A stretch of 64,000 bases of DNA, from contig CM075989.1 in NCBI GenBank assembly GCA_038087875.1, positions 5,766,001-5,830,000 of the forward strand, in the 5' to 3' direction. Positions 11,817 through 62,917 of this stretch are shown piece after piece. This stretch comes from Malacoraja senta (taxonomy: Eukaryota). The notes under the pieces were generated by a model that was not told the DNA's origin, did no database searches, and saw only the letters and a program-made list of their open reading frames with translations. Position numbers and translations under genes: made by a program. Position 1 is the stretch's first letter. Each line of letters begins with the position of its first letter.

Positions 11817-12653
11817 AGGGCCTGTCCCACGGGCAGGCGATTCCATGCGGCAAGCGCGACCTAACAGGAAGCGGGTGCCGTGTGTGGACCGCGCGGAGGT
11901 TGCATGGTCGGTCCCACGTAGATCGCCGGAGCCGTATGTAGTTGGTCCCGACACTGCACGGGGGCTCCGAAAAACCGACACTGTTCAAAAATTCCGCGTG
12001 GCAACGGCCTGCCGCCCTGCTGCCGCATCGAGGCTGCGCGCACCGCCTCGACGCCGCGTGCACCGTCTCCATCAACTCTGGAATTGTTGTGAAGGAAGGA
12101 ACTGCAGTTGCCCATTTACACCGAAGATGGACACACCAAAAATGCTGGAGTAATTAACTCAGTAGATCAGGCAGCTTCTGTGGACAGGTGGTGTTTCGGG
12201 TCGAGACACCTTCTTCAGACTGAAGTCTTCTGCAGTCTTCTATGGTCTGAGGAAGGGTCTTGACCCGAAACATCACCTACCCGTGTTCACCTACATAAAA
12301 ACCAAAACATCACCTAACCGTGTTCACCTACATAAAAAACGCTCGAGCTTCCAACAGACTTTGCTCGAACTGGACGTCCGCTCACCCCCCACTTCCGGTA
12401 AGGTCGAGCTCGCCGCATGGAAGCGCATGCCCGTGGGACAGGCCGTACGATGATCACTCGGCCTCCGCGCGGCACCCGTTTCCGGTTAGGTTGCGCTTGC
12501 CGCATGCATTCGCATGCTCGTGGGACAGGCCGTACGGTGATCACTCGGCCCCCGCGCAGCCATCGCGCGGCAGCCGTGCGGCAGTCGCGCGGCCCCCGCT
12601 TCCGGGGAGGTCGTGCTTGCCGCATGGAATCGCCTGCCCGTGGGATAGGCCCT
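11817..12653. mobile_element. GC-rich PIF/Harbinger-type non-autonomous element with nested Penelope repeat
   Basis: TIRs AGGGCCTGTCCCACGGGCAGGCGATTCCATGCGGCAAGC / GCTTGCCGCATGGAATCGCCTGCCCGTGGGATAGGCCCT; TTA on the left. Confidence 0.75.
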
Positions 12654-12984
12654 AAACAGGTTCCATAAACAGTGTCCAATGTTCTCATTAGGGTTGCAGT
12701 AAATTCCATTACCCTATTTTTTTGGAAGGGCCATTCAGAAGCCTGATAACAGAGGGGAAGAAGCTATTCCTGAAGAAAGACACAAAATGCTGAAGGAACT
12801 CAGCGGGACAGCATCACTGAAGAAAAGGACTGGATGGCATTTCAGGTCAAGACGCTTCTTCAGACTGAGTGCCAGGGGAGAGGGAGACTAGAGATATGGA
12901 AGGGTAAGGTGTGAAAACAACAGATCAACGCAGATGATGATCAAGGAAATGTAGAATGGTTCACTGCTAGTTGAGGGTCCGGTC

Positions 12985-13290
12985 GTGAATCTGGAGAGTG
13001 CACTTTCAAACTTCTGTAACATCGACTGGACAGGAGCAGGGAGAAGAAAGAATGACCGGGGTGGGAAAACGCATTGATTATGTTGGCTGCTTTTCCAAGG
13101 CAAGATGGTGTAGATGGTGTCAATGGTGGGAATGGTGGTCAATGGTGGTAGATGGAGTCAATGGTGGTCTGTGTGATGGACTGGGCTATATCTACAACTC
13201 TCTTCAATTTCTTGCGATCTTGGGTAGAGCTGTTCCCAAACCATGCTGTGATGCAATCTGACAGTATGGTCTCTTTAGTGCATCTGTTCA
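12985..13290 (-). mobile_element. Rex1/Babar-like LINE RT C-terminal fragment
   Basis: Peptide TKETILSDCITAWFGNSSTQDRKKLKRVVDIAQSITQT. Confidence 0.7.
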
Positions 13291-14019
13291 GTTTGCATTC
13301 TATGGAGCATGTATAACAGTATGCTTTCCATGGTGCACCTGTAGTTAGTCCCATACGGTCTAACCGGTCTAGTCCAATTTGCCTCGTTTCCTTACTTCCA
13401 CCTGCGAATGGAGGACTGGAAAATAACAATGTGTGAATTATTTTCACATGATTTAGCCGCTACAAACCAGCTACCATGTGCCTTTAACAGCATGAGGTTT
13501 TGGCACAATGGTAACGAACTTCAAAATGATGGGAGATTGTGCTCTGCTGAACAAATATCACACATAATGCACAATCTTGCCCACGCCTACTTTCTCCTTC
13601 CCTCCTCACCTCATCTAGCCAGAGCACCTCCCAGATTTGTCCTCTCCAACACCATCATCAGTCGCCCTGATTCTGCCCTCCATTAGTCTCATCCCTCGCT
13701 TGGTCCTTGATGGAACTCCACAATGTTTCACCCACCCTACTACTCTCCTAGTCCCCTCCCTCATCCATTTCCTTACTCTCTCAACTCACATATCCCAGCC
13801 CCATTCACCCTGCCCTGGCCCCCAGAAACGTTCCCATTGCTGACCTCACACTCTCCGAGAGTGAGGTCTCACTGAGGTCCACAAATTGTCTCCTTGGAAA
13901 CTACTATCTGATTGAGGCAACCTTTCCTCCTGCAACCACCAACTCTTCCCCAGCCAAACTCCCGAACCTCTCCCAAAAACTTAGGATCTTCAGCAACTTG
14001 CCTCGTAATGGCAGATATG

Positions 14020-15095
14020 GCAACTGCATGGTACGCTGTTCTGGAAGGTTAGATGGCACGAGATGCAAGGAGAGCTAGCCGACTGGATAGAAAATTAGCT
14101 TCATAGAAGGTAACAGAGGGTGGTCGTGGAAGGTTGTATTTTGGCCTGGAGGACTGCAATTAGTGGGGTGCTTCAGGATTCAGTGCTGGGCCCATTGCTA
14201 TCTGTGGTTTATATCAATAATTTGGATGAGAAAGTATAAGGCACGATTAGGAACTTTGCAGATTAAATTAATGTGGGTGGTACAGTAGATAGCGAAGATG
14301 GTTATCAAGGGTTACAGCATAATTTTGATCAGTTGAGCAAGTGGGCAGATGAATGGATTAATGGAGTTTAATGCAGATAAATGTGAGGTGCTGCATTTTG
14401 GGAAGTCTTACCTTCACAGTAAATGGCAGGGCTCGGAGTGTTTGTAGAACAAGAGGGAACAAGAAGTGCAGGTACATAGTTCCTTGCAAGTGGTGTCAAG
14501 ATAGATACATTGCTCAAGAAGTATCTTAGCACTTTGGTTTTCATCAATTAGGGTTCTGAGTATAGACGTTGGGATGTTACATTCCAGATGAGGCCACAGT
14601 TGAAATATTGTGTTCAGTTTTGGTCAGCCTGTTATAGGAAAGATGGTATTAAGCTGACAGAGAAGATATGAGGATGTTGCCAACACGAGGGACTGAGCTA
14701 CAGGGAATGGTTGGGCAGGCTAGGGCTATTTCTTGGAGCGTAGGAGAATGAGAGGTGATCTTGTCATGGTGTATAGATCATGAGGGAAATAGACAGAGGG
14801 TAATCAAGAACCAGAGGACATTAGTTTAAGGTGAGAGAGGAAAGATTTAAAAGGAATCTGAGGGACAACTTTTACACACAAAGAGTGGTGGGTATATGGA
14901 ATAAGCTGCCGGAAAAGGTAGCTGAGGTAGAACGTATAACACTGTTTAAAAGGCATTTGGACAGGTAGATGAATAGGAAAGCATTAAGCGGTTTAATGGG
15001 CCAAACACAGGCAGGTGGGACTAGTATAGATGGGGCAGCATGGCCGGCATGGACAAACTGGGCTGAAGGGCCTGTTTCCATGCTGTGTGACTATA
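14020..15095 (+). mobile_element. Degenerate CR1 RT fragment
   Basis: CAGGATTCAGTGCTGGGCCC ([12 protein letters not shown]), TTTGCAGAT (FADD), CR1 3' UTR. Confidence 0.8.
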
Positions 15096-16738: not shown

Positions 16739-16951
16739 AAGAAACAAGGAACTGCAGATGCTGGTTTACAAAAAAGGACATAATGTGCTGGAGTAACTCA
16801 GCGGGTCAGGCAGCATCTGTGGAGTACAGGGATGGGTGATATTTCGGGATGGGACCCTTCTTCAGACTAAGAGACCCGAAGCATCACCTATCCATGTTGT
16901 CCAGAAATACTGCCTGACCTGCTGAGTTACTCCAGCAATTTACGTCCTTCT
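16739..16951. mobile_element. Penelope-derived inverted (foldback) insertion
   Basis: TGCTGGAGTAACTCAGCGGGTCAGGCAGCATC and its inverse; flanked by CATCAGTA(A/C)ATTG direct repeats. Confidence 0.7.
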
Positions 16952-17008
16952 CATCAGTACATTGGCCCAGCCATTTCTGGGTACAAAACAAGGTAGAATA
17001 GCTGATAG

Positions 17009-17144
17009 AATAGTCTGACGAAGGGTCTCGCCCGAAATGTCACCCATTCCTTCTCTCCAGAGATGCTGCCTGTCCCGCTGAGTTACTCCAGCATTTTGTG
17101 TCTATCTTCAGTTTAAACCAGCATCTGCTGTTTTTTCCCCACAC
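17009..17144 (+). mobile_element. Penelope-derived short repeat with hammerhead-like motif
   Basis: CTGACGAAGGGTCTCGCCCGAAATGTC; 11-bp TSD ATAGCTGATAG (16998-17008 / 17145-17155). Confidence 0.75.
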
Positions 17145-18149
17145 ATAGCTGATAGTCTCCCAGTATCATAAGTACAGCTAAAGATCTCATCTCAATTCAC
17201 AGGGTACATTTCTCTAGTTATCAAGAGAAAATGGATATTAACATTGTGACCTGTGATTTGTATTTATAACACAGGAAAAGGAGTAAATTATGCAATAGAT
17301 CAACACTTGTGTACTGCCTAGGTGAGGTCTGCTCTATGATTTTACCAGGTTGTATGCAAAACAAAGCATTTCACTGTACCTAGATACATGCAAAAAAAAA
17401 GTATCATCGAATCGATATTGCTCCATTAATTCATTGCATTCTGCTTTCGTCCCCCTCTAGTTTTCTCCACTAACATATTTCGAACAGATGTCACTTGTGT
17501 TACACCAGCCCTCTACATAATTCATATATGCCTGTTGCGATTTCCACCTGTATGGCATAGGGGAAGGGGATCACAGGAGTACTGGGCGAAGGGTACATTC
17601 AGGCATACCAAAGGCATATATTCTCATGACCTGTCTGCAGTTGCTCCATTGGGAAAAGTTTGTTCAGCGTCCAGCACCCTCCTTTGGCTTCAAAGAAGGA
17701 TTGTTTCAACAATTGTAATCTCTGAAGGCATCTGCCTCCAGGAATCATGCAGGTTAAATTTTCACACAGGAATCAGAAAGGAAGGTCAACGCAAAAAGCT
17801 GGAGTAACTCAGCAGGACAGGCAGCACCTCTGGAGAGAAGGAATGGGTGACATTTTGGGTCGAGACCCTTCTTCAGAAAGGAAGTGTCCTTTTTTTTAAA
17901 ATAAGAGATTTTGCCAATTTCCTACACTTCTTTTACAGGTCATCTAATTGGTGACTAGGGTTACACACAGCACCTGTTTAACTCACGAAAAAATATAAAC
18001 TCCAGTTTGAATTCTAAATGCTTTCATGTATTTTTCTATCAAATATTAATTAGTATGCCACACAATTTTAGCATTCAAATGATGTTGGGTTTAGGCTTCC
18101 ATTGATGAGCAAATAAGCTGCAGTATGTTTTAGTCACCTTGTTACTTAC

Positions 18150-18253
18150 CTCAGATGATTCAATAAGTTCCAGTAGCTTTGTAAACTGGTCCAACTCTTG
18201 AACCCAATTATCTTTCATCAGTCGATACACCTCAAGCCAAGTCTCACCTTTAG
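18150..18253 (-). CDS. WDR93: WDR93 coding exon (A-KGETWLEVYRLMKDNWVQELDQFTKLLELIESSE)
   Basis: catttag acceptor, gtaagt donor, 104 nt, phase 1 to 0; matches recalled human [20 protein letters not shown]. Confidence 0.88.
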
Positions 18254-22467: not shown

Positions 22468-22564
22468 AATTAGCAGCCAGTTTATTACATCCATCAGATG
22501 TTGACAATTAATACATCAAAGATTTTGCTATGAAAGTACAACAAAGAGCTAACACTGAACTTGG

Positions 22565-22880
22565 GCACAAAATGCTGGAGTAACTCAGCGAGTCAGGCAG
22601 CATCTCTGGAGAAAAGGTATATGTGACATTTCGGGTGGAGACCCTTCTTCAGACTGAGAGTCGGGGAAAGGGAAACTCGAGGCATGAAAAGGTGCAGAAC
22701 AAAGCAGAGATTGCTCTGATAGCCAAAGAGCCCACAATGGTCCATGTTGGCTGTGGAGTAGGTGAAAACGAAGGGATAAGAACAGTGCAACTAGCAAGAC
22801 TACTAGGGCGGGGGAGGGATGGAGAGAGTGGGAATGCAAGGGTTATATGAAATAAGAGAAATCAATATTCATACCGGTGA
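22565..22880 (-). mobile_element. Penelope 3' region with hammerhead-like motif
   Basis: ACATTTCGGGTGGAGACCCTTCTTCAG plus remnant of the GIY-YIG C-terminal codons. Confidence 0.65.
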
Positions 22881-23139
22881 GTATACAGGGTTAACACTGT
22901 CCACTCAATCTTAGAGATGATTCACTGCAGATCATCATGTGAATGTGGTCTATCTTGGTGCGATTATTGTTTTTATAGCTTGTTGTTGCTGGTGAGTAAT
23001 ATATTACATGTGTCAGCACGGTGTGGTATTCATGGTATAATCACAAAAATTTGCAAAATATATATATATTGTTTAAAGCAATACTGAGAAATGTCAATGT
23101 CCTACAAGAGCATTGGTAAAAAATTAAAAAAGGAAATGG

Positions 23140-25862: not shown

Positions 25863-25941
25863 CTTCAAGAGTTACACCAGCATAGTCCCCACCATCTGAT
25901 AACTCAAATTTGCTGCATGTGTTTCTTTCACTTATATTTTC
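25863..25941 (-). CDS. WDR93: WDR93 coding exon (ENISERNTCSKFELSDGGDYAGVTLE)
   Basis: 79 nt, ttttaag / gtaaag, phase 0 to 1; matches recalled human [26 protein letters not shown]. Confidence 0.9.
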
Positions 25942-26999: not shown

Positions 27000-27885
27000 A
27001 AATCACAGATGGATTTTAATCTGAGAAAGTGTGAACTTTTGGGAGGTTGAATGTAAAGGGAAAGTATACAGTTAATGGAAGACCCTTAATAGCATCTTTG
27101 TACAAAGGATTCTTGGGGTCCAAGTCTGTAGCTGAAAGTGTAAAGCACAAGTAGATAGTGTGGGAAAGAAGGCATATTACTTAATTGGTCAGAGCATTGA
27201 GTCAAGAAGTCACGATACAGCTTAATAGGACTTTGGTTAGGCAGTAGACTTTGGTTAGGCAGTAGACTTTGGTTAGGCAGTAGACTTTGCGTACAGACAC
27301 AAAATGCTGGAGTAACTCAGGGGACAGGCAGCATCTATGGAGAGAAGGAATGGGTGAAGTTTCGGGTCGAGACCCTTCTTCAGACTGCGTCAGGAGGGAG
27401 GGAGATACATAGATAAGGAAGTGTGAAGGTGTGAAAACAGGTCAAAGGGAATGGAGATCAAGGAAAATGTAGAATAGATCATTGTTAGCTGGGAGAAGTA
27501 ACAACAAAGCAAACAGAGATAACATGTAGTCGGAGACAGTAAGACTGGTCGGAGAACTGGGAAGGGGGAGGGATGGAGAGCGAGGGAAAGAAAGGATTAC
27601 TTGAAGTAATTGGTGAATTGTGTACAGTTCGGGTCGTCCAATTACAGGAATGATCTGGAGACTTTGGATAGGGTGTAGAAGAGGTTTACCAGAATGCTGC
27701 CTGGACAGTATTGGCTGTAAGGAGAAGTTAGACAAACTTAGATTGTTTTCTTTGGAACGTCGGTGGCTGAGGGGAGACCTGATAAAAGTATATAAAATTA
27801 TGAGAGGCATAAATAGAGTGGACAATTAGAACCTTTCTCCCAGGATGGAAATGTCAAAGACTAGAGGGCATAGCTTTAAGGCAAA
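27000..27885 (+). mobile_element. CR1 fragment interrupted by a Penelope 3' piece (~27295-27605)
   Basis: CR1 peptides WAKKSQMDFN and KLRLFSLERRWLRGDLIKVYKIMRG on either side of a minus-strand Penelope repeat. Confidence 0.7.
27229..27289. repeat. 18-bp tandem repeat x3.3 (GACTTTGGTTAGGCAGTA)
   Basis: Perfect tandem copies visible. Confidence 0.9.
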
Positions 27886-30071
27886 AAGTTTTAATGTTTT
27901 TTTAATGTTTCAGTGGATTTTTTAGTATCAGCTTGGGGACCTTTCAATGAGATCACTCCACATGCTAAGCCAATTCAATTATGCAGGGCATCCTAAGACA
28001 GCTCTGATGCAAATAACATAGACAAAGGTATGGCTTTAGGCTTAAGGGCAATAGTAATAAAATGACCAGGTCTCAATAAATTAAATGTGTAGGAAGGAAA
28101 TGCAGATGCTGGTTTAAACCGAAGATAGACACAAAAAGTTGGAGTAACTCAGCAGGACAAGCAGCATCTCTGGAGACTTTTCGGGTCAAAACCCTTCTTC
28201 AGACTAGTTAGGGATAAGGAAACCGAGCGATATAGATGATGATATAAATTAAAAATAGGTAATATCATAATGGAAGTTCCCCATGGTGCACAAGAATTAT
28301 CTGTGGTAGTAGGTGTTTTACAAGGAGTCAAACAATGGCACAGTTATAGCTGGCACAATTCTCCAAGGACCCGACATAGCTCCTGACTCCAGGTGCTGTC
28401 TGCGTGGAGTCTGGACATTCTCTCTGTTAACTTTTTGCGCCGTTAAATGCAAAGATAATCAAAGAGGAGATGATGGAGTGCGAGCAAGATCAAGTTGCAG
28501 AAATGGAACGAATGAGAGGAGGAATGAGCGTAGTGATTACTCCCCTAAGGGACTGGTGTGGACCTGAAGGGCTTAACTGTCTCCATTTGTGACATTGTAT
28601 ATGCCATAATAACACATGGAAAGCAATTGGCAGTCGCTAGAAATGTCCATTAAAAGTCAAGGGCACAAGATATATAAAGATGGAGACTCCAGATGCTAGA
28701 ACTTTGAGCAAAAAGCAAAGTGTTGGACAAACTCAGTGGGTCAGGCAGCATCTGTGGAGCGAGTGAACAGACAACATTTCAGGTCAAGATCCTTCTTCAG
28801 ATAGTTAAAGATGATCAGATTCTTAATGTAATATGAATAAGTAACCACACCTTGGAGAAACCAATTGTAGGGGACACAAGGAACTTCAAATGTTGGAATT
28901 TTGAGCAAAACACAAAGTGCTGGTGGAATTCAGAGGGTCAAGCAGCATCTGTAGAGGGAATGGATAGACGACGATTCGGCTTGGGACTTTTTCTCATACT
29001 TTGCTTTACCTCAAACCATGTTGCACCCCCACTTCATTAATAACTTTACTGAGTCTTTGATAAAGACTCAAGAAGATAAATATTGCTGCTGTTAATGTTA
29101 AGCATATTTGGAGAAAACATAATTCTACTTAAATTTAAGCTCTGAACACAAAATCTAACAAGTTGTTCTGCTTCAAAATTTGGTTAATTCTAAAACTGTA
29201 CCAAAGGTATTTTTAGAACCATCTGATTAGTTTCACACTAACCAGTGTAGATGTGGCTTGCAAACTACAAGTTGCACTTCAGTAGCAATGAAGTACTATA
29301 AAGCATTTAAATATTTTCAACATACCTCAGAGAGCATATTAACATGATTTAGCACATTCATAGTGGCCGAAGTGCAAAAATTCTGCCTTCTCTAGTGTGG
29401 AAGGAAAGGGAAAAAGAAAACCACGGAGGAACAAATTGAACCATGAAATTGGCAATATCTATCCTTATAGACTAGGACATTGAGGCATTACAGTTTTTAA
29501 AACAGGCCTACATAAGTTCATAAGTTGTAAGAGCAGAATTAAGCCATTGGGCCCATCAAGCCTATTCCACCCTTCAATCATGGCTGATCTATCTTTTCCT
29601 CTCAACGCCATTCTCCTGCTTTCTCCCCATAACCCCTGACACCAGTCTTAAACCTGCAACATTAACTTTGTTTCTCTTACCACAAATGCTGCTTGACCTT
29701 CTGAAGCAGGGTCTCGACCCAAAACATCACCTATACTTTTTCTCCAGAGATGCTGTCTGACCCGCTGAGTTACTCCAGCATTTTGTGTATGACCTGAATA
29801 TCTCCATAGATTTCTGTTTTTTATGTGAGGTATTATAGTTAGTGTCTTTGCTTGTGTCAGGAATGGAGAAATTTAGCCAAGATCTCAATAGGATCTGCAT
29901 TATATACAAGTGAAAATCAGTATGCTGTGACATTCTTTATGAGCAAAGATCTAATCAATTGCATCATCTGTTATGTTAAAAATGACAAAAAAAACATTGG
30001 CAAGGAATCAGATACTGGCACAAGGGATAGTTAAATAAGCTATTAAGCAATGAAGATGTTTCAATAAATAC

Positions 30072-33967: not shown

Positions 33968-34404
33968 ATCTCTAGAGGATTTGTTTTTGCATCCAAAAAT
34001 CTAAATTTGTATTCACTCTCTTAAATTCAGAACTTATTCCGAACATTTTAAGCTCTCATTAAACCACAATAAATTCTGGATTCCTTATCTGCAACACTCA
34101 GCCTGTATGGATAGAATGACATCTGATGACGCGATTAAAACAAATACATTTCTATGCTCTGTCTCTTCTTAAGTTTAAAACACAGCTACAAAATAATGAG
34201 TGTGAAATGCGCCAAAATTGTTTTTATGACACTGGTTTTTGAAGCTCAAACCATGTTTTTGAGGCTGAATTGAAGAACATAGTTTGATCAAAATAAATGA
34301 AGTTTTATTCTACATTTAATTATGTTACAACTGCTAACTGCCTCAAGATAGTCGTGATAAGCAGCATTTTTGATCCATCAGGATCCTCCCATAAATTTGT
34401 GAGG

Positions 34405-34825
34405 TAGATAGACACAAAAAGCTGGAGTAACTCAGCAGGACAGGCAGCATCTCTGGAGAGAATGAATGGGTGACATTTTGGGACGAGACCCTTCTTCAGA
34501 CTCAAACCATGTTAAGTTAACATCACCCATTCCTTCTCCCCAGAGATGCTGCCTGGCCTGCTGAGTTACTCCAGCTTTTTGTGTTTATCTTCAGTTTAAA
34601 CCAGCATCTCTGGATATCTTTCATTCATTTGTTCTATATCTCTCTACATCACCGTCTATATCTCTCGTTTCCCTTTCCCCAGACTCTCAGTCTGAAGAAG
34701 GGTCTCGACCCGAAAAGTCACCAGTTCCTTTTCTCCAAAGACACTGTCTGACCCTCAGAGTTACTCCAGGTTTTTTGTGTTTATCTTCGGTTTAAAGCAG
34801 CATCTGCAGTTCCTTCCTACACAAG
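34405..34825. mobile_element. Cluster of Penelope-derived repeats in inverted and tandem arrangement
   Basis: Minus copy 34405-34502; plus copies 34520-34825 including CTGAAGAAGGGTCTCGACCCGAAA at 34692. Confidence 0.7.
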
Positions 34826-40200: not shown

Positions 40201-40249
40201 TCTTCCCACAATTCCCATATAGATAGAGATTTCTACTAATCACTTAGAT

Positions 40250-40715: not shown

Positions 40716-42321
40716 ACTCCTTGCACGCCTTCCATGTTGTACTCTTCATAACAACCACCCCATTACTTGTTGACTTGCATTATCATCATTTAAAAAATGG
40801 TCATCCATGTTTTCAAGTTCCTTTGTGGATTTGTCCTTCCCTTTTCTGTGAACTGTCCAATCTCGTATGTAATATGTTGTCCTTGAAATCTGCCGTTTGT
40901 CACCCTGAAATGTAATTATTGTATGATTTCACTATTGAGGTCCTGAGCTCTGGAGTTATCTCAATGAACCTGTCTGCTGCTTTATCTTTCTTTGTAAGAT
41001 GCCCCATATAATATCACTACTTTTAGTTGAGTTTTTTGCGTTTACCCTAATGTTTCTGTTTTAAAGTTTTATTTGGTAATGCTCCTGTGAAGTGCTCTGG
41101 TTTTTGCATCCTTAAGGGTATGAAGTCGACAGAAGTTGTTGTGAATAGAACCAGATGGGTGTGAGCTAAGTGATGTAAATTAGGAGAGCAAGAAACTGAA
41201 GTGCTGGAGGAACTCAATGGGTGGAACTGCATCTGTCCGGGAGAAGGAATTGTCCTCATTTCGGGTCGAGACCCTGCATCAGGACTGGGAGTGGAAAGGG
41301 ATGATGGCCAGTAAAAGGGAAAGTGGGAGGGGTAAGTAGGTGATAGGTGGATGTAGGAGGGGGCGAAGGATAAAGGCAGGTGGAGCCAAGGGGGGGGGGG
41401 GGATGGAGTTGGGAAATAAGAGTTGAGGATGATAAATGGAAGTAGGCAAGGGGGGGTGAAAAGAGTAAATTCAAATTGTGGCGTAAGTGACGACATTAAT
41501 GGGACGGAAGTTTTTTTGATCTTCAGAGTGCTCAAATCAAGTATCGTTTGCACTAATTTGGAATGTGTAGAACTTGATTATCTGTTTTGTAAGCTACCTT
41601 TCTAAGATGTCATGCTCAAGACGTTGAGTTCATCATCTTGCCTGTCTTTCAAATTTATATAGAGGAGCCTCTCAATTTCTAGATTTAGTTATGGTTCAGG
41701 CTATTTCTTAGTTCTATGTTTTGTTATGGAGTGAGTTTCAGTGCAATTGATTTCAAATCTTTAAAGATGTTGTCCATCATTTGTCTGGTAGGCCTGTTTT
41801 TTCTCCACAACTTCTACATAATATCCATTTCTTACCACAACTAATTCAAGACAACTACATTTGCTTAATTTCTGCAAATGGTGGCTGTCGTTACTCATCA
41901 AGACATGGTTTCTCCTTGCTCATCTACATATTCTATTTAAAACTGATTATTAAATTGATGGCTATTGAAGTACACAAATTAACTCTTTTAACTATGATTT
42001 CGATTGAATCTCCATTAATCTGTCTGCATAGATCTTGCAAAAACCGCTACAGATTCTTAATTACCGGTGGATAATATGTTTCCTGGCATATCATCTCTGG
42101 AGATAGACACAAAAAGCTGCAGTAACTTAGTGGGTCAGGCAGTATCTCTGGTGAATAGGAATAGGTGATGTTTCAGGTCGAGACCCTTGGAGTCATGGAG
42201 TGATACAGTGTGGAAACAGGCCCTTCAGCCCAACTTGCCCACACAACAATGTCCTGGCTACACTAGTCCCACCTGCCTGTGCTTGGTCCATATCCCTCCA
42301 AACCTGCCCTATCCATGTACC

Positions 42322-43821: not shown

Positions 43822-44979
43822 GTAAGTATAAAACAGTTCTGGGAGGGGGATGAAAGCAGCACACCTTATTCTGTCCTGCAGCTATTTATAGTGATATTTG
43901 CAAAAGCAGATTATTGTGTTCCTCCACAATGCTTTGGTGTTATTTCAAAGCATAGTTTAATCCAAAGTGAATGGATTAATTTGTAACAAGTGTTTCTGGG
44001 AACCACTTCTCTCTAATGACTTCCTATTTTCCAGTCTTAAAATTAGCAGATTTGGTTATGGATTTTTCTGAGTAGCATCAAGGCTGAAACACAATGGAAT
44101 TTTAGCATCAAACCCAGGATGGCTCTTGAGAGGACAACTCTTTGCATCTCTGCATTTTAAGGCAATAGGCATCCAATAAATTGTACCTGAAGCGTGATTC
44201 CTGGCATTTACATTCCTGGTGGGCAGTTAATGGCATGTGACTCCCACAAGTAAAGAAATCGTAAACCCACAATTTCACACTGCAGAACGTTTCCAATAAA
44301 AGTCTTCAAGCAGCCTAGACTCCTTCCGCCTTGTCTCTTGTAAGTCATTGTCCCTTTCTCTGTTTCCTTTTCCATCCCTTTTTCGGTCTCCGCAGCACCT
44401 TGAGAGGAGGTTTTCTATTCTAGGGCATCTGAAATATCCCTTGTTTCAGGAAATGTGGCTTCTGCCATTTGCGGGAATAGAGTCAGTCGCACAGCGTGGA
44501 AACTAGCTTCTCGGCCCAACTTGGCCACGCCAACCAACATGCCCCATCTACACTAGTCCCACCTCCCTGAATTTGGCCCATAAGCCTCTAATCCTATCCT
44601 ACCAATGTACCAGTCTAAACATTTATTAAACATTGCAATAGTCCCTGGTTCAACTACCTCCTCTAGCAACTCGTTCCATATACCCACCACCTTATATGTA
44701 ATAATAACAAATTAAAAAAACGAATCACTCGGGTTCCTATTAAATCTTTTCCCCCTCACCTTAAACCTATGTCCTCTGGTTCTCAATTCCCCTACACTGA
44801 GCAAAACACAGGGCATTTAACTGGTTTATTCCTCTCATGAATTATAAGATCACCTCTTATCTTCCTGCGCCCTAGGGCCCTACCATTCACCTTGGAAATC
44901 CTGCCTTTAACATTCCCAAAGTATTACATTTCATCAACTATTCCTCAGCCCACCTGCCCAGCCAATCAAGATCCTGCGT

Positions 44980-45480
44980 TGAAGAAAGAACTGCAGATGC
45001 TGGGAAAAATCGAAGGTAGACAAAAATGCTGGGGAAACTCAGCGGGTGAGGCAGCATCTATGGAGAGAAGCTATAGGTGACGTCTCAGGTTGGGACTCTT
45101 CTTCAGACATGGTGTCGGTGGGGAGGGCTGGAAAAAGAAAGGAAGAGGCGGAGACAGTAGGCTTGTGGGAGAGCTGGGAGGGGAAGGAGGGAGAAAAGCA
45201 AGGACTATCTGAAATTAGAGAAGTAAATGTTCATACCGCTGGGGTGTAAACTACCCAAACGAAATATGAGGTGCTGTTCCTCCAGTTTGCGCTGGGCCTC
45301 TGGCAATGGAGGAGGCCCAGGACAGAAACGTCAGATTCGGAATGGGAGGGGGAGTTGAAGTGCTGAGCCACCGGGAGATCAGGTTGGTTAGTGTGAACTG
45401 AGCGGAGGTGTTTGGCCTGCGCTTGGTCTCGCCGATGTAGAGAAGTTGACACCTGGAACAGCGGATGCAGTAGATCAAGA
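44980..45480 (-). mobile_element. Penelope-like element 3' part with GIY-YIG endonuclease remnant
   Basis: LIYCIRCSRCQLLYIGETKRR, HLRSV..DLPVAQHFNSPSHS; followed by the hammerhead-bearing repeat. Confidence 0.82.
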
Positions 45481-45534
45481 TCCTACTGTCATTTTTGACA
45501 ACCATCTTCACTATCTAGAATACCACCCACTTTA

Positions 45535-49357: not shown

Positions 49358-49935
49358 TATTTAGGTTGGGTAACACAGTGGATGCAGTTCAGACAGCCAG
49401 AAGGAACGTTCAGATTTCAGACCCCGTGCTTCGGTTTTGCCTCACTGCCATCTCCCTCAGTCGGGCTCTGTACTACATTTGTGATAATATTCTCTGGTCC
49501 GGAGCAGTGGGACTTGGTGATATTGATAAGGAGAAGTGGAGCAAGCGATGCAACCATTACTATTTTTTCTCACTAGTTGTCAGCCTCTGTAGAGATGTCT
49601 ATGAGGTTGTCCAGCTCATGAAAGAAGAAGTGCTTGTCCAAAAGAGGCAAGAGAGCAAATCCATAAACAACCTGGAAAACAATCGTGTGCAGAGAGAGTT
49701 TGACTGGATAGCAAGGATCAAGTCCAAAGCTTTCTTCCTGCTGCTTTTCCAAAGCCTTGGGAACAATCCTCCTGTATTGCTTGACATTGTTAAAAATCTC
49801 TGCGACCTCACCCTCCCGCTAGACAAAATGGGCATCTGCAAAACCAATTCTGGTGTCGTTGGGTTCTGTGGGCTCCTTTCCTCAATCCTCTCAATTCTAG
49901 CTTTGATGCACCCAGCACTGAAGTTGAAAGCATGA
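49358..49935 (+). CDS. PEX11A: PEX11A coding exon 3 to stop
   Basis: ttccag acceptor; FRLGN, ICDNILW, PPVLLDIVKNLCD, PLDKMGI, KLKA*; total CDS 750 nt; 3-exon structure and WDR93 adjacency favour the alpha paralogue. Confidence 0.92.
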
Positions 49936-50453: not shown

Positions 50454-53400
50454 ATAGTCATCTAAAACGGTTTGGGGTCTGTTGAGAAAATTGGTCACTT
50501 GTGTGACTGAATTATTGCAAGCTTGTCTTCCCCTCAATTTAAAAAACATGAATCCCTAATCCCATGCCATATATTTCAATCTGGGTTGTGACAGCTTGTG
50601 CAGAAGCATTTCATAGTTCTAGATCTCTTAATATTTTCCCCCTCACTTTTCTCTTTTATATTCCTTGTGGAGGTGATTATGGAAGAATTTCTGTTGCACT
50701 TTTCTGCTGAAGAGCAGGGTCTATAATTTTCATGTTCTTGTGGGGAAAGTGCCTTACTATGACTTGCCTGCAAATGATGCAACTACAGGAGCAAGAACTG
50801 TGTTTAATGCATTTGTGACAAGTGGCTGGATAATGTTTTGTAATTTTTTTTGGAGCTTTTCTCATGACTTGAATTTGCAAGCCTTTAGTGAAAATGTAGA
50901 AATATTTGGGTGTCCCACTTTTTGATATGAGGCTGTCTTATAAGAGGAAATGCATCTGAGTTTAGAATATTTATAAGCTCTTATCAGAAACCTATTTGTT
51001 TACTGAAAGCCTATGCAATTAAAAAAAATACCCGTGTGTAATATTCAATTAAAGGTTTCAACAGAATGTTAACATTTTTTAGTTCGGAACTTTACTTGAA
51101 CATGGTGTAGCTTGCGAAGGGAAAGTGTTAAAACATAAAGACTAACTATGCAACCCACATTCTGGTGTAGCAAGATGGGATATCAAGTTTTTGATACAAT
51201 AGCAATGTTAATTTCTGTATCCTAAATTAGGAAGAAACTAATTTTCATTGATTGCTGCAAACCAATGCTGCTATATTTGCTGAATCGTTCTACTGTTCTG
51301 TTTGTGCTCTAATAAATTATTTGCCACAACATTTGTTTGGCTTATTTTTATTTTAAATGCATTCACTCTTAATGCCGTTACAGATACAGTAAACACTCTT
51401 TAACTGACCTCTTTCCAACGGATTTTGATTGGAGCGACTGACTTACCGACGGCAGCTTGCACCATCTCCCCGACCGCTTACTGTGCTGTCCCCGGCTCAC
51501 AACGCTTGCCGCGCCAGCTGCCCACCTGCTCACGCCACCGCTGCGACCAGACCTTCTGCTACCACCTCTGGTCCACATAGCTTCCTCAGCCGTGCCTGCC
51601 ACCAACGACCCTTATCTGTACTCTGGCCGCCCGCAACAATTGTCAATCCGCACCTCTCCACCAGCAGGCCGAGGCTGTCAACTCGTCTGGATACACACAA
51701 AATGCTGGAGTAACTCAGTGGGACAGGTCTTCGGACTTCAAACTCATCTGGATTCCAGGCCCAGTTCCAGTCCGAGAGTGAAGAAGGCTCTCGACCTGAA
51801 AGGTCACCTATCCATGTTCTCCAGAGATGCTGCCTGACCTGCTGAGTTACTCCAGCACTCTGTGTCCTTTTGTGTATTAACAGGCAACTGTAGTTGTTTG
51901 TCTCTACTACATATATACAATGATAATGCCTCGCCCGGTTATAGCAGGAAATCGGCAATAACAAACACCATTGCCCCCCCCCCCCAATGGTCCATTATAA
52001 TGAGGGGGTTACTGTATTTCAGATCCTTTAAATTAGTTGTTGCAAAGCATATACACAACATGTCTCTATCAGGTTCTGTTCTTCAAGTCTTCAGAACCTT
52101 CCGTTTTCAAAATCACCTCAAACTCCTAGGTGACTGAAACACTTGACATTGTTTTCCTTTCATTCCTTAATGGACATTGGTGTTTATTTTTCTTTATTTG
52201 TATTATCTCCAATCCTGTGACCAGCTATAATTTCTGGTTTGCTCCTATTCTAGTCCAACATCCTTTGCATCTTTAAATTAGAGCAATAGGATCATACCAG
52301 ATGGAAGCAGGCCCTTCAGCCCACTTCGGCAATGCTGATTTTTTTCTTCCCTACTGTGTAACTGTGCGTTCTGTTCTACAACATATTTTCCAGGGGCCTA
52401 CTATTTATTGTGCACGTCGTGTCCTAGTTCAACTTGTCAAAATGCATCACCTCACACTTGTCAATATATCTGCCTTGGCCCACTTACTTGGTTGATCCAG
52501 GTCCCTTTGTAAACTTAGAGCGTTCCTCACTCTCAATGCACAGCTGATTTTGGTGTCAGCAACAAACTTAACACATTCACTGCATTGTCATCTATATTGC
52601 GCTAATACAGATAACACAATGGATCTAGTGAATATCACAATGACACCATGATCACAGGCCTCAAAACAGAAATACATCTCTCCACTTCCACCCTCGTTCT
52701 TCCAAGCCAATTTTGAATCCAGTCGGCTGGTTCATACCAAAGATAGACACACAATACTGGAGTAACTCAGTGGGACAGGCAGCCTCTTGCATCCCTTCTC
52801 TCTCCGTCCTCTCACCCGGGTTGTTGTACTAGTTTCAATGTTATCGTGTTGAGTTTCACTCTAACTCGTTGTGGTCTTCTCCACAGCCAACAATGGACCA
52901 CTGTGGGCTCTGCATTTCCTTGATCATCATTCCTTTTTACATATCTTTTACTCATTTGTTCTATTTACCTTCTATATCTCTCGTTCCCTTTCCCCTGCGG
53001 GACTTTAACATTGTGAGCTGGCGATTCCCTTTGCCAGGGATCGACAGAGCTCCAACCGCGGGGAGCTCGCGGTCTCTGGTTGGAAACCGACTTTGGGAGC
53101 TCCAAGCCGCAGGAGTTGTTCGAGTATAGTATGGGGCTGAGACGGCATTCTTGTGGGGCATCGTGGAGGATGTTTTGACATCCATTCTCACTGATTGTGG
53201 TATTGGAGTGCTTGGTTTGGTTCTGCCCAAGACCGCAATAGTTATAAATGCAGCCCAGTCGATCACAAAGCAGTCTCCCCCGACATCAACTTCAACTATA
53301 CTTCATGCTGCCTCTGGAAAGCAGCCGATATTATTAAGGACCACTCACAACCCTAGTCATTTTCCCTTCTCTCTCCTGTCAGGCAGAAGATATAAAACCT

Positions 53401-54023
53401 TAAAAGCACTTTTGACCAGATTCAATTACAGTGTCTTGCCCACTGTTATCAGACAGTTAATCAGACCTCTTCCAATCTATCTCTCTAGCCCTTGTAACAC
53501 TACATTCTGCACACTTTGTTTGTGAGCATAAACTCATGTATGATTTTCCTGGGTGGCATTCAAAACAAAGATTTTGCACTCTGTACATGTTACTTTAATA
53601 AACAAATAACTAAACAATTTTTGTGAGTCTGAAGAAGGGCCTCGACCAGAAAAGTCGCCAACATTTTGTGTCTATTTTCACTTTAAACCAGTATCTTCCC
53701 ACACAATTTTCTTATCCTGTATTCCTCAATGGATTTGCCCAATCCAAGCTGCCTATACCTGTTTAGACTTTAGAGATACAGTGCGGAAATAGGCCCTTCG
53801 GCCCAACAAGTACACGCCGACCAGCGATGACCCTATACACTAACACTATCCTACACACTAGGGACAATTTACAATTTTACTATAGCCAATCAACCTACAA
53901 AACCTGTAAGTCTTTGGAGTGTGGGAGGAAATCGGGGCACCTGGAGAAAACCCAAGCGGTCCCAAGGAGAACATACAAACTCCGTCCAGACAACACCCAT
54001 AGTCAGGATCATGGCACTGTAAG

Positions 54024-56221: not shown

Positions 56222-56630
56222 TAGAAACATTCAAAATGATCATGGCTGATCAAACAAAATCAGTATCCCATTCCTGCTTTTCCCCCATAGATCTTGATTC
56301 TGTTAGCCCTAAGAGCTAAATCTAACTCTCTTGAAAACCTCCAGTGGATTGGCCCCCACTGCCTCCTGAGGCAGAGAATTCCACAGATTCACAACTTTGG
56401 GTGAAAAAGTTTTTCCTCACCTCAGTCCTAAATGGCCTACCCCTTACTCTTAAACTGTGACCCCTAGTTCTGGACTCCCCCAACATGGGGAACATTTTTC
56501 CTGCATCTAGCTTGTCTAATCCCTTAAGAATGTTACATGTTTTTATAAGATGCCCTCTCATCCTTCTAAATTCCAGTGAAGGCCAATATGCCATTTGCTT
56601 TCTTCACTGCCTGCTGTACCTGCATGCTTA
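56222..56630 (-). mobile_element. CR1 3' fragment
   Basis: SLEFRRMRGHLIKT..FFTQ peptide. Confidence 0.75.
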
Positions 56631-59560
56631 CTTTAGTTGCGAACAAGACACTAATGAATGTATAAACGCTGAGATTGTCAGAAGAGATTTTGCACTGTTT
56701 TTATTTTACATATTTTATTCTGAACAAGGTTTATTTTTGAAAATAAAGTAAAGATATGACAACGTTTTAGAGAACACGCACAGCAAAACCGTGTTAGCAC
56801 GCAACAAAAGCTTTTCACTGTACCTCGGTACACGTGACAATAAACTAAACTGATAAACTGATTGAGAGGGAAGTTTAGGAAACGCTACTAGAAGCTATTA
56901 AAAGATGGCACGGTGGCGCAGCGGTAGATTTGCTACCTTACAGCGCATGCAGCGCCGGAGACCAGGTTTCAACCCCGACTATGGGTGCTGACTACGGAGT
57001 TTGTACGCTCGCCCCGTGATCAGGTGAATGTTTCTCAGCCTGTGTCACTAGGTTTTATTTTGCAAGTATTTCATTGTACTTAAATAATGCAGTACTTATT
57101 AAGTAAGTATTTAATCCACTATTTATTTGGATGAATAATCCCAATAACACACCTCCTAATTAGTACCTTACAATGTGATGAGGTAGTATTTTGAGACTTT
57201 GTATTTCAAGACTTGTTCTGCTGGCTGAATTGAGCATCTGTAGTGTCAATCTTGATTTTCAAGCCAATTTTGTATCCAATCGGCTGGTTCATACCAAAGA
57301 TAGACACAGAATACTGGAGTCACTCAGCGGGACAGGCAGCATCTTGCATCCCTTCTCTCTCCATCCTCTCACCCTAGTTGTTATACTAGTTTCAATGTTA
57401 TCGTGTGGAGTTGCACTCTAACTTGTTCTGATCTTCCCCACAGCCAACAATGGACCACTGTGGGCTCCGCATTTCCTTGATCATCATTCCTTTTTACATA
57501 TCTTTTACTCATTTGTTCTATTTACCTTCTATATCTCTCGTTCCCTTTCCCCTGCGGGACTTTAACATTGTGAGCTGGCGATTCCCTTTGCCAGGGATCG
57601 ACAGAGCTCCAACCGCGGGGAGCTCGCGGTCTCTGGTTGGAAACCGACTTTGGGAGCTCCAAGCCGCAGGAGTTGTTCGAGTATAGTATGGGGCTGAGAC
57701 GGCATTCTTGTGGGGCATCGTGGAGGATGTTTTGACATCCATTCTCACTGATTGTGGTATTGGAGTGCTTGGTTTGGTTCTGCCCAAGACCGCAATAGTT
57801 ATAAATGCAGCCCAGTCGATCACAAAGCAGCTTCCCCCGACATCAACTTCAACTATACTTCATGCTGCCTCTGGAAAGCAGCCAATATTATTAAGGACCA
57901 CTCACAACCCTAGTCATTTTCCCTTCTCTCTCCTGTCAGGCAGAAGATATAAAACTTTAAAAGCACTTTTGACCAGATTCAATTACAGTGTCTTGCCCAC
58001 TGTTATCAGACAGTTAATCAGACCTCTTCCAATCTATCTCTCACTAGCCCTTGTAACACTACATTCTGCACACTTTGTTTGTGAGCATATACTCATGTAT
58101 GATTTTCTCACTTAAGAATGTTACATGTTTTTATAAGATGCCCTCTCATCCTTCTAGATTCCAGTGAAGGCCAATATGCCATTTGCTTTCTTCACTGCCT
58201 GCTGTACCTGCATGCTTACTTTAGTTGCGAACAAGACACTAATGAATGTATAAAGGCTGAGATTGTCAGAAGAGATTTTGCACTGTTTTTATTTTACATA
58301 TTTTATTCTAAACAAGGTTTATTTTTGAAAATAAAGTAAAGATATGACAACGTTTTAGAGGACACGCACAGCAAAACAGTGTTAGCACGCAACAAAAGCT
58401 TTTCACTGTACCTCGGTACACGTGACAATAAACTGATCAAGAGGGAAGTTTAGGAAACACTACTAGAAGCTATTAAAAGATGGCACGGTGGCGCAGCGGT
58501 AGATTTGCTACCTTACAGCGCATGCAGCGCCGGAGACCCGGGTTCGACCCCGACTATGGGTGCTGACTACGGAGTTTGTACGCTCGCCCTGTGATCAGGT
58601 GAATGTTTCTCAACCTGTGTCATTAGGTTTTATTTTGCAAGTATTTTATTGTATTTAAATAATGCAGTACTTATTTAATCCAATACTTATTTGGATGAAT
58701 AATCCCAATAACACACCTCCTAATTAGTACCTTACAATGTGATGAGGTAGTATTTTGAGACTTTGTATTTCAAGACTTGTTCTGCTGGCTGAATTGAGCA
58801 TTTTTGGCATCAATCTTGATTTTCCAGTTTATAAATGATTTAAATGATAAATTTAAATGAGTTTCTCCAGCATTTTTGTCCACCTTTGATTATTCCCACA
58901 TCTGCAGTTCTTTCTTAAACATAAATGATAAACTAATACTTGGCCTAAAATGCACGTTGATAAAGTACATTATTTTGTTCAACGGTTACTTCCTGTGAAG
59001 TGTGAACCAGTAGTTTTAGGGGATGTTGCCTTGTTTTCCTCTATTCTCTGTGAATGGATGAGGTGGAGTCACTAACGTAATCGATGCTGTGGGGCCAAGC
59101 TATTCCCTTCTCCACTCTCGAAAGCCCTCACCATCTCAATGACAAGATCAACATGAGACAGCCCATTCAACCAACCTTCCTCCATTCAAAGGACTGATGT
59201 TCTCACCAACCCCATTGCTACATTTAATTTTTTCTTAAATAATTGCAAGGATTTTGTCACCAGTGGTTTTTTGTTAAACAAAGAATTTGTTTGTCTGCTT
59301 ATAACAGTTTATGCATATTAGAGTCTGTTGTACATCAATTTAGTTTTTAACTTTGTAGAGGTGACAGTCTGTTTGGCACAGACATTGTGGGCCGAAGGGC
59401 CTGTTCTTGTGCCTTACTCTTCTGTGTTCCAGTACTCCATAACTTCTTGTTAATCAGAGATCAATGGGTTTTTAGATATTGGGAGAATCTGGGAACATGG
59501 GATTCATGCAAGTAAGTGGCGTTGTGGTAAATGATCAACAATGATCATATTGAGTGATTC

Positions 59561-59882: not shown

Positions 59883-60367
59883 AAAATACATTGCTCCTCA
59901 TGTTAATTAGGGGTCATGAAGGTTAATTACGTGTGATAAAGCTTATCCCTAACCAAAAGAAAAATACATAGCCTGTATCCTTCAATCATTTTTATAGCCC
60001 TGGTGATTTTGTAATTATAACAGAGAGGGGAAAAAATGCTTTGCTTGAGCACCCAACACCATTTCTTGAAAACATCCAAAAGTATTTTCCTTCGATGTAA
60101 ACAAATCTTTTTACTACTCATTATAGAGACATTAGTTTGATTTGGTTATAACATGATCCTTTTCTTTATTGATCCTTGTTCATTACAGAGTCATCTTCAT
60201 TCAATTAGCACACACAATCAATCAAAACTGATGAAATGTGAGGATTTAGAGCAATTTTTTAATAACATTGCGATAGTGTAGTCGGAATGTTAAAATCATT
60301 ATTTTTTAATAGAAAATGACTGCAAAATTCACGCTTAATGGACAGCCTGGGATGGCTCACAGAAGAA

Positions 60368-60472
60368 TCCTCCATCAGTCTGAAGAAGGGTTTCAGCCCG
60401 AAACGTTGCCTATTTCCTTCGCTCCATAGATGCTGCTGCACCCGCTGAGTTTCTCCAGCACTTTTGTCTACC
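60368..60472 (+). mobile_element. 105-bp Penelope-derived insert with intact hammerhead core
   Basis: CTGAAGA-AGGGTTTCAGCCC-GAAACGTT; 15-bp TSD TGGCTCACAGAAGAA. Confidence 0.8.
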
Positions 60473-60703
60473 TGGCTCACAGAAGAAGCTCTGTGAGAAG
60501 ATCTAAAACAAGGAGATTAATAATGACTTAATTGACGAAGATGTAGAAACAAGGAACTGCAGATGCTGGTTTACAAGAAAAATACATGGACTGGGCAGCA
60601 TCTCTGGAGAACTTGGATACGTGACATTACCGGCTGAAACTTTCTTCAGTCTGAAATGTTGCCTGTCTACATTCTCCAGAGATGCCGCCTGCTTGCTGAG
60701 TTA

Positions 60704-60920: not shown

Positions 60921-61229
60921 TTATTCCAGCATTCTGTGTCTTTTTTGGTGAATCAGCATCTGCAGTTCCTTATTTCTACATTTGATTGACCAGGAATTGT
61001 TTTGAGAAAACAACAATGGATTATGTTCTGTGAAATAGTGTAGGCTAGACCCAAACCAGAATGTAATATATTCTCTGCTTGCTAAGGCCCCAAGATCTTG
61101 ATGATAATAGATTGTGAAGAGCTAATTGTTTCTATATAATAAGAAATAACCTGAGGTCTAAGTTCAGACTGAATGCCTAAGTGATGTGATCTGATCATCA
61201 GACCCACATAGGGAATAAATAGGGTCCAT

Positions 61230-61355
61230 GAAAGAACTGCAGATGCTGGTTTAAGTCGAAGATAGGTACAAAATGCTGGAGTAACTCAACGGGACTGGCA
61301 GCATCTCTGGGGAGAAGGAATGGGTGACGTTTCGGGTCGAGACCCTTCTTCAGTC
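61230..61355 (-). mobile_element. Penelope-derived repeat with consensus hammerhead core
   Basis: Minus strand CTGAAGAAGGGTCTCGACCCGAAACGTC (61353 to 61326). Confidence 0.78.
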
Positions 61356-61539
61356 TAATAATTCAGGGAATAAGGCCCTTGTATTAGCTGTCAGGTACCA
61401 ATCTGTTCCTGATTATTTCAATGCCAATGATGAGGAAACCAAACACTTGGTGATGTGGAAAATAGAAGGTGATGCTATGGCAACCTGTAGGAAGGATGTG
61501 TATGAATGTAGAAGATAGACACAAAAAACATTTTTAGTT

Positions 61540-61870
61540 AGTTTAGTTTATTGTCACATGTACTGAGGCAGAGTGAAAAGCTTTTGTTGCTAACCAGTTA
61601 GTGGAAAGACAATACATGTTTACAATCGAGCCACTCACTGTGTACAGATATGTGATAAAGGGAGGAACGTGAATTACGTTTAGTGCAAGATAAAGCCAGT
61701 AAAGTTCGATCAAAGATAGTCCGAGGGTCTCTAATGAGGTTGATAGTAGTTCAGGACTGCTCGCTACTTGAGGTAGGATGGTCCAATTGCCTGATAACAG
61801 CTGGTAACAAACTGTCCCTGAATCTGGAGGTGTGCGTATTCACACTTCTATACCTTTTGCCCGATGGGGG
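61540..61870 (-). mobile_element. Rex1/Babar-type LINE 3' tail
   Basis: PSGKRYRSVNTHTSRFRDSLLPAVIRQL; GTGACAATAAA-(CTAAA)n tail. Confidence 0.65.
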
Positions 61871-62917
61871 ATGGGAGGAAATGCTGAAGTAACTCAGCGG
61901 GTCAGGCAGCATCTCTGAAGAAAAGGAGTAGGTGGCGCTTCGGGTCTGACCCAAAATGTCATCTATTCCTTTTCTCCAGAGATGCTGCCTGACTCGTTGG
62001 GTTACTCCAGCATTTTATGTCTATCTGTGGCATCCAATTGTCCAGCTTCAATGCTAAAACCATAGTCAAAATAGGTTAGGACTGGACACTACATTGAAGG
62101 AGAACAGAAAGATAAGGATGGTGAAGGGTCTTGCGAGCATGATTTATGCCATTTCCAAACCCCAGAACCACTTGAAAATTTGTCACCAGCAACCTACTGG
62201 AGTGTCCATGAGTCAATGATTGCTGGTTTCCACAAGTCCATGTTCTGTCTCAACAGACAGTATATCGAGCAAACTGCAAGTGCTCGTGCTTTGATGTTGC
62301 ACTTAAGAGTCTGAATAAAACTAAATATTCCTTTCACCAGTTGACAGCAGTGTGATTCTAAAGTGAGTGAATTCAGTAGCACAGTGTGCACTAAAAATAG
62401 CAGAAAGACCCACAATATATCTTGTATGCTTTACAACCGAGTAAAAAAATACCGCACTAACACATCACGTGGAAAGTGAATGGTAATTTGCAGTTCCTCA
62501 CATAAATCTGCTTGCTCCAAAGCTATAAAACTTCCAATTAGTGATTCTTACAGTGCTCTCGTCTTTGCAAAAGCACGAAGTTGTTCTTTGCTCTTGAGGC
62601 TTGTTGGTAAAGCTGAGCATTTGCTATTAACCATTCATGTGTACACTCGGCACCCCTGGACATCAACAATACTCATCAAAACAAACATCAAACAGAAAAA
62701 TCTAATCAATGACTCAAAAGCTGGTGGTGGATTGAAAGCCATTTTGATTTGTAATTTTTGATTATAGGTACAATTTGTTCATTCCAGTGTAAACATATAG
62801 TCCCTTTTATATTAAAACAATATTTGGATAGCACCTTTTTGGAATAGGAAGAGCAACGATCCATATTAATCAACCTTCTCCGAAGGTCTAAATCTTCATT
62901 CACTTCAGTTGCTTTAC

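Follow-up and report, generated by a model that had tools for sequence, protein, structure and literature searches.

Minimal hammerhead ribozymes (min-HHRs) are an established component of the Penelope-like retroelements of metazoans, in which, as described in 2014 (Cervera and De la Pena, PMC4209133), a CUGANGA/GAAA core is combined with an extra base, a G10.1–C11.1 pair and a palindromic 15.2–16.2 segment without a loop III. In the portion of the published alignment considered here, helix I measures 2–6 bp, with 2 bp listed for Culex, three Drosophila species and Oikopleura and at least 3 bp in the vertebrate rows; that portion holds no chondrichthyan row (PMC4209133). Our literature search, with most subscription papers outside its scope, gave no skate or shark report under 'hammerhead ribozyme' among the matches listed, and retrozymes derived from pseudo-long terminal repeats (pseudo-LTRs) have been reported in one chondrichthyan (bioRxiv 10.64898/2026.07.22.740005). 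Here we analyze 64,000 nucleotides from the skate Malacoraja senta (GenBank assembly GCA_038087875.1, contig CM075989.1, positions 5,766,001 to 5,830,000 of the forward strand; hereafter the window), whose largest short-repeat family is a hammerhead-bearing unit of ~130 nt dispersed in and around the host gene WDR93 and a gene of the PEX11 type. The latter we take, from human synteny, to be PEX11A. We propose that the repeats derive from the 3' end of a Penelope-like retroelement, as truncated pieces that carry its minimal hammerhead motif, and that, very probably, they are inactive fossils decaying without selection. As such, the skate copies extend the 2014 observation to skates.

Several published results bear on what motifs of this kind can do. 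Single minimal hammerheads were uncleaved and dimers weakly cleaved (PMC4209133), a dimer dependence likewise stated in a review (PMC6765202), and one of nine Xenopus dimers cleaved (bioRxiv 10.64898/2026.07.22.740005). The motif of the Anolis Poseidon element PAc cleaved only with the element's own protein; ribozyme mutants still inserted in vitro, the substrate for insertion was uncut RNA and, in the part of that report considered here, no RNA sequencing reads ended at the cut site (PMC11167929). The skate family resembles PAc in its pseudo-LTR hammerhead, its two groups of 3' ends and the uncut motif kept in its insertions; it differs in belonging to another clade and in that the PAc ribozyme was assayed and found to need the element protein, whereas the skate motif is known from sequence alone. 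With the animal non-LTR retrozymes it shares short repeats and a type I hammerhead related to Penelope pseudo-LTRs, but those are described as tandem units each with a complete motif (bioRxiv 10.64898/2026.07.22.740005), whereas the skate copies are dispersed monomers and inverted pairs.

An iterated nhmmer profile recovered 38 pieces of the repeat in the window and none in each of 10 dinucleotide shuffles. The whole hammerhead core is covered by 21 of the 38, a row at 16853-16977 having been left out of these because an inversion junction, not core, makes up its 5' half. Weak homology upstream can be missed, since the core served as the seed of the profile and the sequence ahead of it varies between subfamilies. 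A sequence-independent descriptor of the minimal hammerhead, asking for CUGANGA, a helix II of at least 3 bp, GAAA and NUH and nothing else, gave 10 matches in the window against a mean of 0.09 (maximum 1) over 100 shuffles. Giving each copy by the position of C3 of its core, plus-strand copies are found at 12247, 17015, 29701, 34692, 51778, 53629 and 60380, and minus-strand copies at 12218, 12863, 16865, 17876, 22652, 27383, 28202, 28800, 34499, 41282, 45106 and 61353. A first-pass annotation of the window had placed about 20 repeats at seven plus and 12 minus positions; all 19 hold a copy, and two further whole-core copies, both minus, lie at 28997 and 60649. Beyond the window, 125,415–157,562 contigs per run match one copy at 80% likeness in four sequencing runs from four organisms, and the same inversions, along with rare head-to-tail joints, appear in these contigs. 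Hence, the family is very abundant and common to related species, and skate genomes carry on the order of 100,000 copies. Exact-pattern scans for further copies gave 0 matches each in viral, metagenome and prokaryote collections. The copy statistics given throughout are drawn from the window and one mapping of contigs.

The majority sequence of the family fits the published metazoan consensus, and its reading as a minimal hammerhead stands as first proposed. It possesses each of the 11 invariant core bases and, separating positions 9 and 10.1, an A (present in 23 of 23 rows), together with a G10.1–C11.1 pair (G-C in 12 and G-U in 4 of 18 aligned copies), a helix II of 4 bp, an ACGU palindrome without a loop III, a GUC triplet and a helix I of 2 bp, the third helix I pair failing in 16 of the 18 aligned copies. 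At 15.2–16.2 the majority pair is C-G, and the same 18 copies show C-G (4), U-G (7), U-A (1) or no pair (6), which is the pattern of CpG decay. Besides the core, extra base, G10.1–C11.1 pair, palindrome and NUH triplet, the family shares with the described min-HHRs a prevalence of single motifs, a very high copy number, some close pairs on opposite strands and truncated elements; it differs in that its stem I of 2 bp and stem II of 4 bp lie at the short end of the published range (PMC4209133). In the covariance-model check that had been suggested, no Rfam hammerhead family matched at E up to 10, over the whole window and two 121-nt stretches, as expected because the motif is without helix III. 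The covariation score of the helices was reached by 72 of 500 shuffles, in a set of 18 closely related copies with little power.

The repeat represents the pseudo-LTR at the 3' end of a Penelope-like retroelement. At 45205-45480 on the minus strand lies a frameshifted GIY-YIG endonuclease remnant that matches the shark Penelope-like protein P0002 in three tblastn pieces (55–68% identity, E 7e-25) and also P0001 by BLASTP; it reaches the Pfam GIY-YIG domain at E 0.07 only, and its shark relatives do so at E 9e-5. This remnant ends 100 nt before C3 of copy 45106, so that the abutting of the repeat on GIY-YIG remnants, earlier placed at 45231-45480, proves real. Likewise, copy 22652 extends up to the final endonuclease codons and copy 27383 has the same 3' untranslated region (UTR), the hammerhead motif lying 100–230 nt past the endonuclease stop. 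The endonuclease is a C-terminal GIY-YIG domain with CxxC and downstream histidines, and the relatives P0002, P0003 and P0005 carry a reverse transcriptase (RT) and a CX4CxxC linker (the latter recognized by eye), a linker described for Neptune and Nematis elements (bioRxiv 10.1101/2021.04.23.441226). The copies themselves are 5'-truncated and often inverted head-to-head (five loci are such pairs, one with an extra tandem copy). Their 3' ends fall into two groups, at columns 97–111 and 123–145, which are ~30–40 nt apart and amount to an optional tail, and some are flanked by target-site duplications: duplications scoring at least 8 occur in 5 of 21 copies, compared with 1 of 120 shuffled flank pairs; the two best measure 11 and 15 bp. 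Partial tandems, inverted 5' copies and an optional tail of 30–40 bp are described as marks of Penelope insertions (bioRxiv 10.1101/2021.04.23.441226). Taken together, the endonuclease link, 5' truncation, inverted pairs, tail and duplications bear out the derivation from Penelope that the first-pass annotation had put forward. With the endonuclease-bearing (EN+) Neptune-type elements of that report, the family has in common the C-terminal GIY-YIG with CxxC, the linker in shark relatives, 5' truncation, partial tandems, inversions and tail; it differs in that the window is without a full-length element, and the linker is shared with Nematis. From these sequence features the source element was probably of the Neptune type. 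In the window, Penelope-type RT is present as separate scraps only, within 23126-24067: two plus-strand pieces (23126-23355 and 23876-24067), up to 62% identical to P0002, stand head-to-head with the long copy that ends at ~22885. A second, older GIY-YIG remnant (46797-47108, plus) has a pyrimidine-rich 3' flank with no hammerhead motif behind it.

The copies and the remnant next to them are arranged along the window as follows.

12088..12290, both strands: head-to-head inverted pair of copies 12218 (minus, U16.1 mutated) and 12247 (plus, core intact, palindrome broken)
12764..12975, minus: copy with 3' UTR, U16.1 mutated (C3 12863)
16740..16977, both strands: head-to-head inverted pair; the minus copy (C3 16865) has an intact core and an AUAU palindrome
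17009..17144, plus: short copy with intact core (C3 17015) and a target-site duplication of 11 bp; antisense to WDR93
17748..17890, minus: short copy with G12 changed to A (C3 17876) and a possible duplication of 8 bp
22524..22885, minus: long copy with final endonuclease codons, 3' UTR and a motif with intact core (C3 22652); WDR93 intron, sense
27269..27640, minus: long copy with 3' UTR, intact core (C3 27383) and broken stem III palindrome; sense in WDR93
28086..28250, minus: copy with an internal deletion that takes out the 3' strand of stem I (C3 28202)
28682..29011, minus: two older sense copies with 197 nt between them, 28800 (core kept, stem II weak) and 28997 (three core changes)
29659..29818, plus: copy with A9 and G12 mutated (C3 29701), with a degenerate partial copy ahead of it
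34394..34823, both strands: inverted and tandem cluster of minus 34499 (G12 changed to A), a coreless plus copy at 34519 and plus 34692 (core intact, palindrome broken), upstream of the first WDR93 coding exon
41189..41400, minus: older-subfamily copy (C3 41282), 31% divergent from the majority, position 7 being U, with a stem I of 3 bp and a mutated core; PEX11A intron 1, antisense
42079..42188, minus: copy without the 5' half of the core; PEX11A intron 1, antisense
44978..45204, minus: immediately behind the endonuclease stop, a pyrimidine-rich 3' UTR, hammerhead motif (C3 45106, mutated at A14) and tail; PEX11A intron 2, antisense
45205..45480, minus: C-terminal GIY-YIG endonuclease remnant, frameshifted, through to the stop codon (tblastn, BLASTP)
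51685..51906, both strands: inverted 3' fragment and a plus copy with C3 mutated (51778), beyond the PEX11A stop
53620..53696, plus: internally deleted copy whose core is intact and whose stem II is broken (C3 53629)
60368..60472, plus: short copy with core and ACGU intact, a GUU triplet, a stem I of 2 bp (C3 60380) and a target-site duplication of 15 bp
60543..60703, both strands: head-to-head inverted pair, neither core whole
61225..61366, minus: copy with core, ACGU and GUC intact (61326-61353) and A-A at the first stem I pair
61878..62057, both strands: head-to-head inverted pair with its joint inside stem II, 5' core absent

All core bases are kept in 11 of the 21 whole-core copies, including 28202, where an alignment gap had hidden C17. 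Four of the 21 (16865, 17015, 22652 and 60380) additionally have a helix II of at least 3 bp, a pairable 15.2–16.2 and a helix I of 2 bp, and 28800 joins them in another register (5 of 21); none matches the majority in core, ACGU, GUC and helix I all at once. Copy 22652, with a stem III of AUGU and a stem I of 2 bp, is the best intronic candidate, and for copy 16865 folding predicts a long hairpin in which it pairs completely with its inverted neighbor. G12 is the essential general base of hammerhead chemistry. Here it lies in a CpG, and it reads A in 13.8, 14.9, 15.5 and 15.2% of the depth in the contigs of the four runs, as compared to 10.1–13.0% mutated for a CpG G 43 nt downstream and 5.5–9.6% for the loop II CpG G near the end of the alignment, these being rough figures from depth-weighted contigs filtered at 80% likeness, with some differences uncounted. 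Within the window, G12 has gone to A in 3 of 21 copies and the downstream CpG G is changed in 3 of 17. On these rough figures there is no sign that G12 is protected. The family constitutes a very abundant natural series of decayed hammerheads, with the inserted copies unprotected at the catalytic guanine. Dimer energies were not weighed: hammerhead-like homodimers of 10 copies came out 11–41 kcal/mol above the dimer minimum, in a calculation with no positive control and a poorly modelled core.

The point at which copies begin is a small clue to which RNA Penelope elements copy. Homology is lost 0–13 nt before C3, without a pyrimidine tract, in 14 of the 21 copies, and the remaining seven run on into the pyrimidine-rich 3' UTR; where duplications define the start, it lies at -12, -11, -6, -5 or 0. 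This spread of -12 to 0 led us to discard the idea of one exact start, at the A three bases ahead of C3. None of the 21 starts at the cleavage site, and since the copies keep the core, they appear to have been made from uncut RNA. Briefly, the following mechanism would be plausible. Source elements would be transcribed through tandem pseudo-LTRs, and the ACGU segments of two motifs would pair to form helix III, such that the motif would fold only as a dimer. This would be cut after GUC, probably aided by the RT–endonuclease protein. Insertion, on the other hand, would proceed by target-primed reverse transcription of uncut RNA, beginning ~85–130 nt past C3, with most products halting early and leaving single motifs that drift. 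In the long copies, a pyrimidine tract followed by CAG stands just before the core, resembling a 3' splice acceptor (copies 12863, 22652, 27383, 34692 and 41282); three of these five lie in WDR93 introns in sense orientation, where they could act as cryptic acceptors.

The host genes relative to which the copies are oriented were delimited thus.

32055-32315, 30072-30273, 26431-26495, 25863-25941, 18150-18253 and 8505-8586, minus: WDR93 coding exons (Pfam PF21030 on four exons; frames and splice sites)
37173-37228, 43706-43821 and 49358-49935, plus: exons of the PEX11 gene (Pfam PF05648; open frame of 249 amino acids)

The WDR93 exon at 26431-26495 was picked by eye from four candidates, and the gene presumably runs on further to the left of 8505. 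Named proteins matching the window come from Leucoraja, Rhinoraja and sharks, in keeping with skate DNA. Pfam searches of 54 minus-strand and ~50 plus-strand frames found no third gene past 50 kb, and the copies from 51.7 kb onward lie past the PEX11A stop. The cluster at 34.4–34.8 kb would lie in an intron only if the gene possessed a non-coding exon beginning near 36.3 kb. The introns of PEX11A contain three pieces, all antisense and none sense. The earlier description of repeats on both strands of two host genes thus holds for WDR93 and fails for PEX11A, with its antisense pieces alone, the copies from 51.7 kb onward lying where the Pfam searches found no gene; the two substrates suggested for cleavage assays, 61300-61370 and 60360-60480, fall outside both coding spans. 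Between the divergent WDR93 and PEX11 genes there is a CpG-rich patch (36260-36440) with GGGGTC/GGGGCG repeats, probably a shared promoter.

The first-pass annotation had further suggested that minus copies in WDR93 introns, being in the sense of the pre-mRNA, might cut themselves. A lone intron copy would not cut, because it has no close partner and no protein helper. Read in terms of dimers, the suggestion is that some sense copies in WDR93 introns find a partner, either among themselves or in trans among RNAs of the element, and cut the pre-mRNA at a low rate. Within the coding span, nine sense copies have a core region, of which four are usable as a catalytic half and seven as a substrate half, five sense copies keep all core bases, and the abundance of the family is such that trans partners could exist. 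However, the pairs that pass a lenient heterodimer filter all have a helix I of 2 bp and lie 0.8–12 kb apart, copy 16865 would be taken up by its inverted neighbor, G12 is unprotected, sense copies are not depleted and PEX11A is without one; we regard this reading as scarcely credible. Self-cleavage of the intronic copies is likewise not upheld, given that none of the 21 is complete, that partners are at least 0.8 kb away with 2-bp stems and that published monomers were inactive. Extremely unlikely, too, is the broader idea of dispersed intron copies as half-ribozymes, which would cut host pre-mRNA once their palindrome pairs with a second sense copy or a protein-bound element RNA; if true, it would make the family a distributed, element-triggered brake on host transcripts, and the family would gain far greater importance only through a demonstration that host RNA is cut by intronic copies. 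The preferred view of the copies as inactive fossils also has points weighing against it. Among the ordered sense pairs in WDR93, 13 of 72 do pass the lenient filter, four of them within one intron. It had been held that core positions no more conserved than their flanks would tell against a ribozyme; yet, the majority base is present in 199 of 210 non-CpG core cells (94.8%) as against 695 of 777 downstream cells (89.4%; Fisher p 0.017), and the same comparison per column gives p 0.038. We read this surplus as subfamily sources keeping the core while the flanks diverged, a comparison in which selection on sources and on copies is not separated. An equality of core and flank obtained by dropping nine variable flank columns was a circular step and is not used. 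Further, the cross-genome figures take in G12 and CpG guanines, not C3–A9 or A13–A15.1, whose changes may fall below 2%, be clipped where the alignment ends or belong to 14 rows outside the listing, and sense copies are taken as not depleted in WDR93 introns because all pieces at 8.5–36.3 kb divide into 11 sense and 9 antisense (p 0.82), a test of little power (n = 20).

The other alternatives concern the source of the copies. It is possible, if on balance doubtful, that ribozyme function had already been lost in the source elements of this skate family, with stem I down to 2 bp, and that the family spread without need for cleavage. The failing third stem I pair (16 of 18), the 3 bp seen in the older copy 41282 and in all vertebrate rows considered of the published alignment (at least 3 bp; PMC4209133), and the insertion in vitro of ribozyme mutants (PMC11167929) speak for it. 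Against this, a 2-bp helix I is listed for the dipterans and Oikopleura named above (PMC4209133), the family majority retains the 11 core bases, the extra base after A9, G10.1–C11.1 and the palindrome, and subfamilies differ more in their flanks than in the core. Rather unlikely, in our estimate, is a second possibility that is compatible with the fossil reading as far as the inactivity of the copies goes, namely that the short copies are a non-autonomous derivative, akin to a short interspersed element (SINE), whose RNA starts just before the hammerhead and is mobilized uncut by the Penelope protein; the border, marked by UCAGU before C3, could be a start site, a splice acceptor or a template-switch hotspot. 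The clustering of 14 of 21 starts within 13 nt of C3, next to seven copies continuing into the 3' UTR, fits this picture, as do the duplication-defined starts near the core and inversion junctions that also lie at or in the motif. In Drosophila virilis, moreover, the 5' end of helix I marks the end of an intron (PMC4209133), and this intron lies 46 bp after the start site (PMC2377424). However, the starts spread over 13 nt instead of falling on one base, and copy 53629, one of the 14, looks like a split long copy (it is probably the far half of a longer copy, separated by an insertion after 52990). The core-seeded profile and the subfamily-variable upstream region may hide weak homology. Very unlikely, in our judgement, is an origin of the copies as monomer offspring of a tandem non-LTR retrozyme spreading via circular RNA: head-to-tail joints do exist elsewhere, such as the one from 61353 back to 61230 in 47–68 contigs per run, and retrozymes are on record for one chondrichthyan, but the joints have a depth near 1e3 as against 1e6–1e7 for the repeat, no tandem with two intact motifs occurs in the window, and the copies show no circular permutation at the cleavage site, several of them continuing into the endonuclease gene.

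The window also contains other repeats. A nearly intact L1/Tx1-type long interspersed element (LINE) with a few frameshifts occupies 201-5958 on the minus strand, the same strand as WDR93; its frames comprise a 361-amino-acid ORF1-like protein, an endonuclease (Pfam E 5e-18) and a 763-amino-acid RT (E 6e-40). Two young CR1-like LINE 3' ends on the plus strand (6185-6976 and 45499-46466) are 95–98% identical over 600 bp and have many shorter relatives elsewhere. Local duplications link 52700-53550 with 57257-58100 (94%) and 56520-56819 with 58108-58407 (98%), and carry an inverted repeat fragment, the 3' UTR of the Penelope-like element and a LINE-like insert. An inverted repeat of 147 bp at 33558-33976 has arms that are 97% complementary and 125 nt apart. 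Finally, directly after the plus copy 12247 there follows a GC-rich, internally repeated stretch (12280-12660), which is related to 11800-11900.

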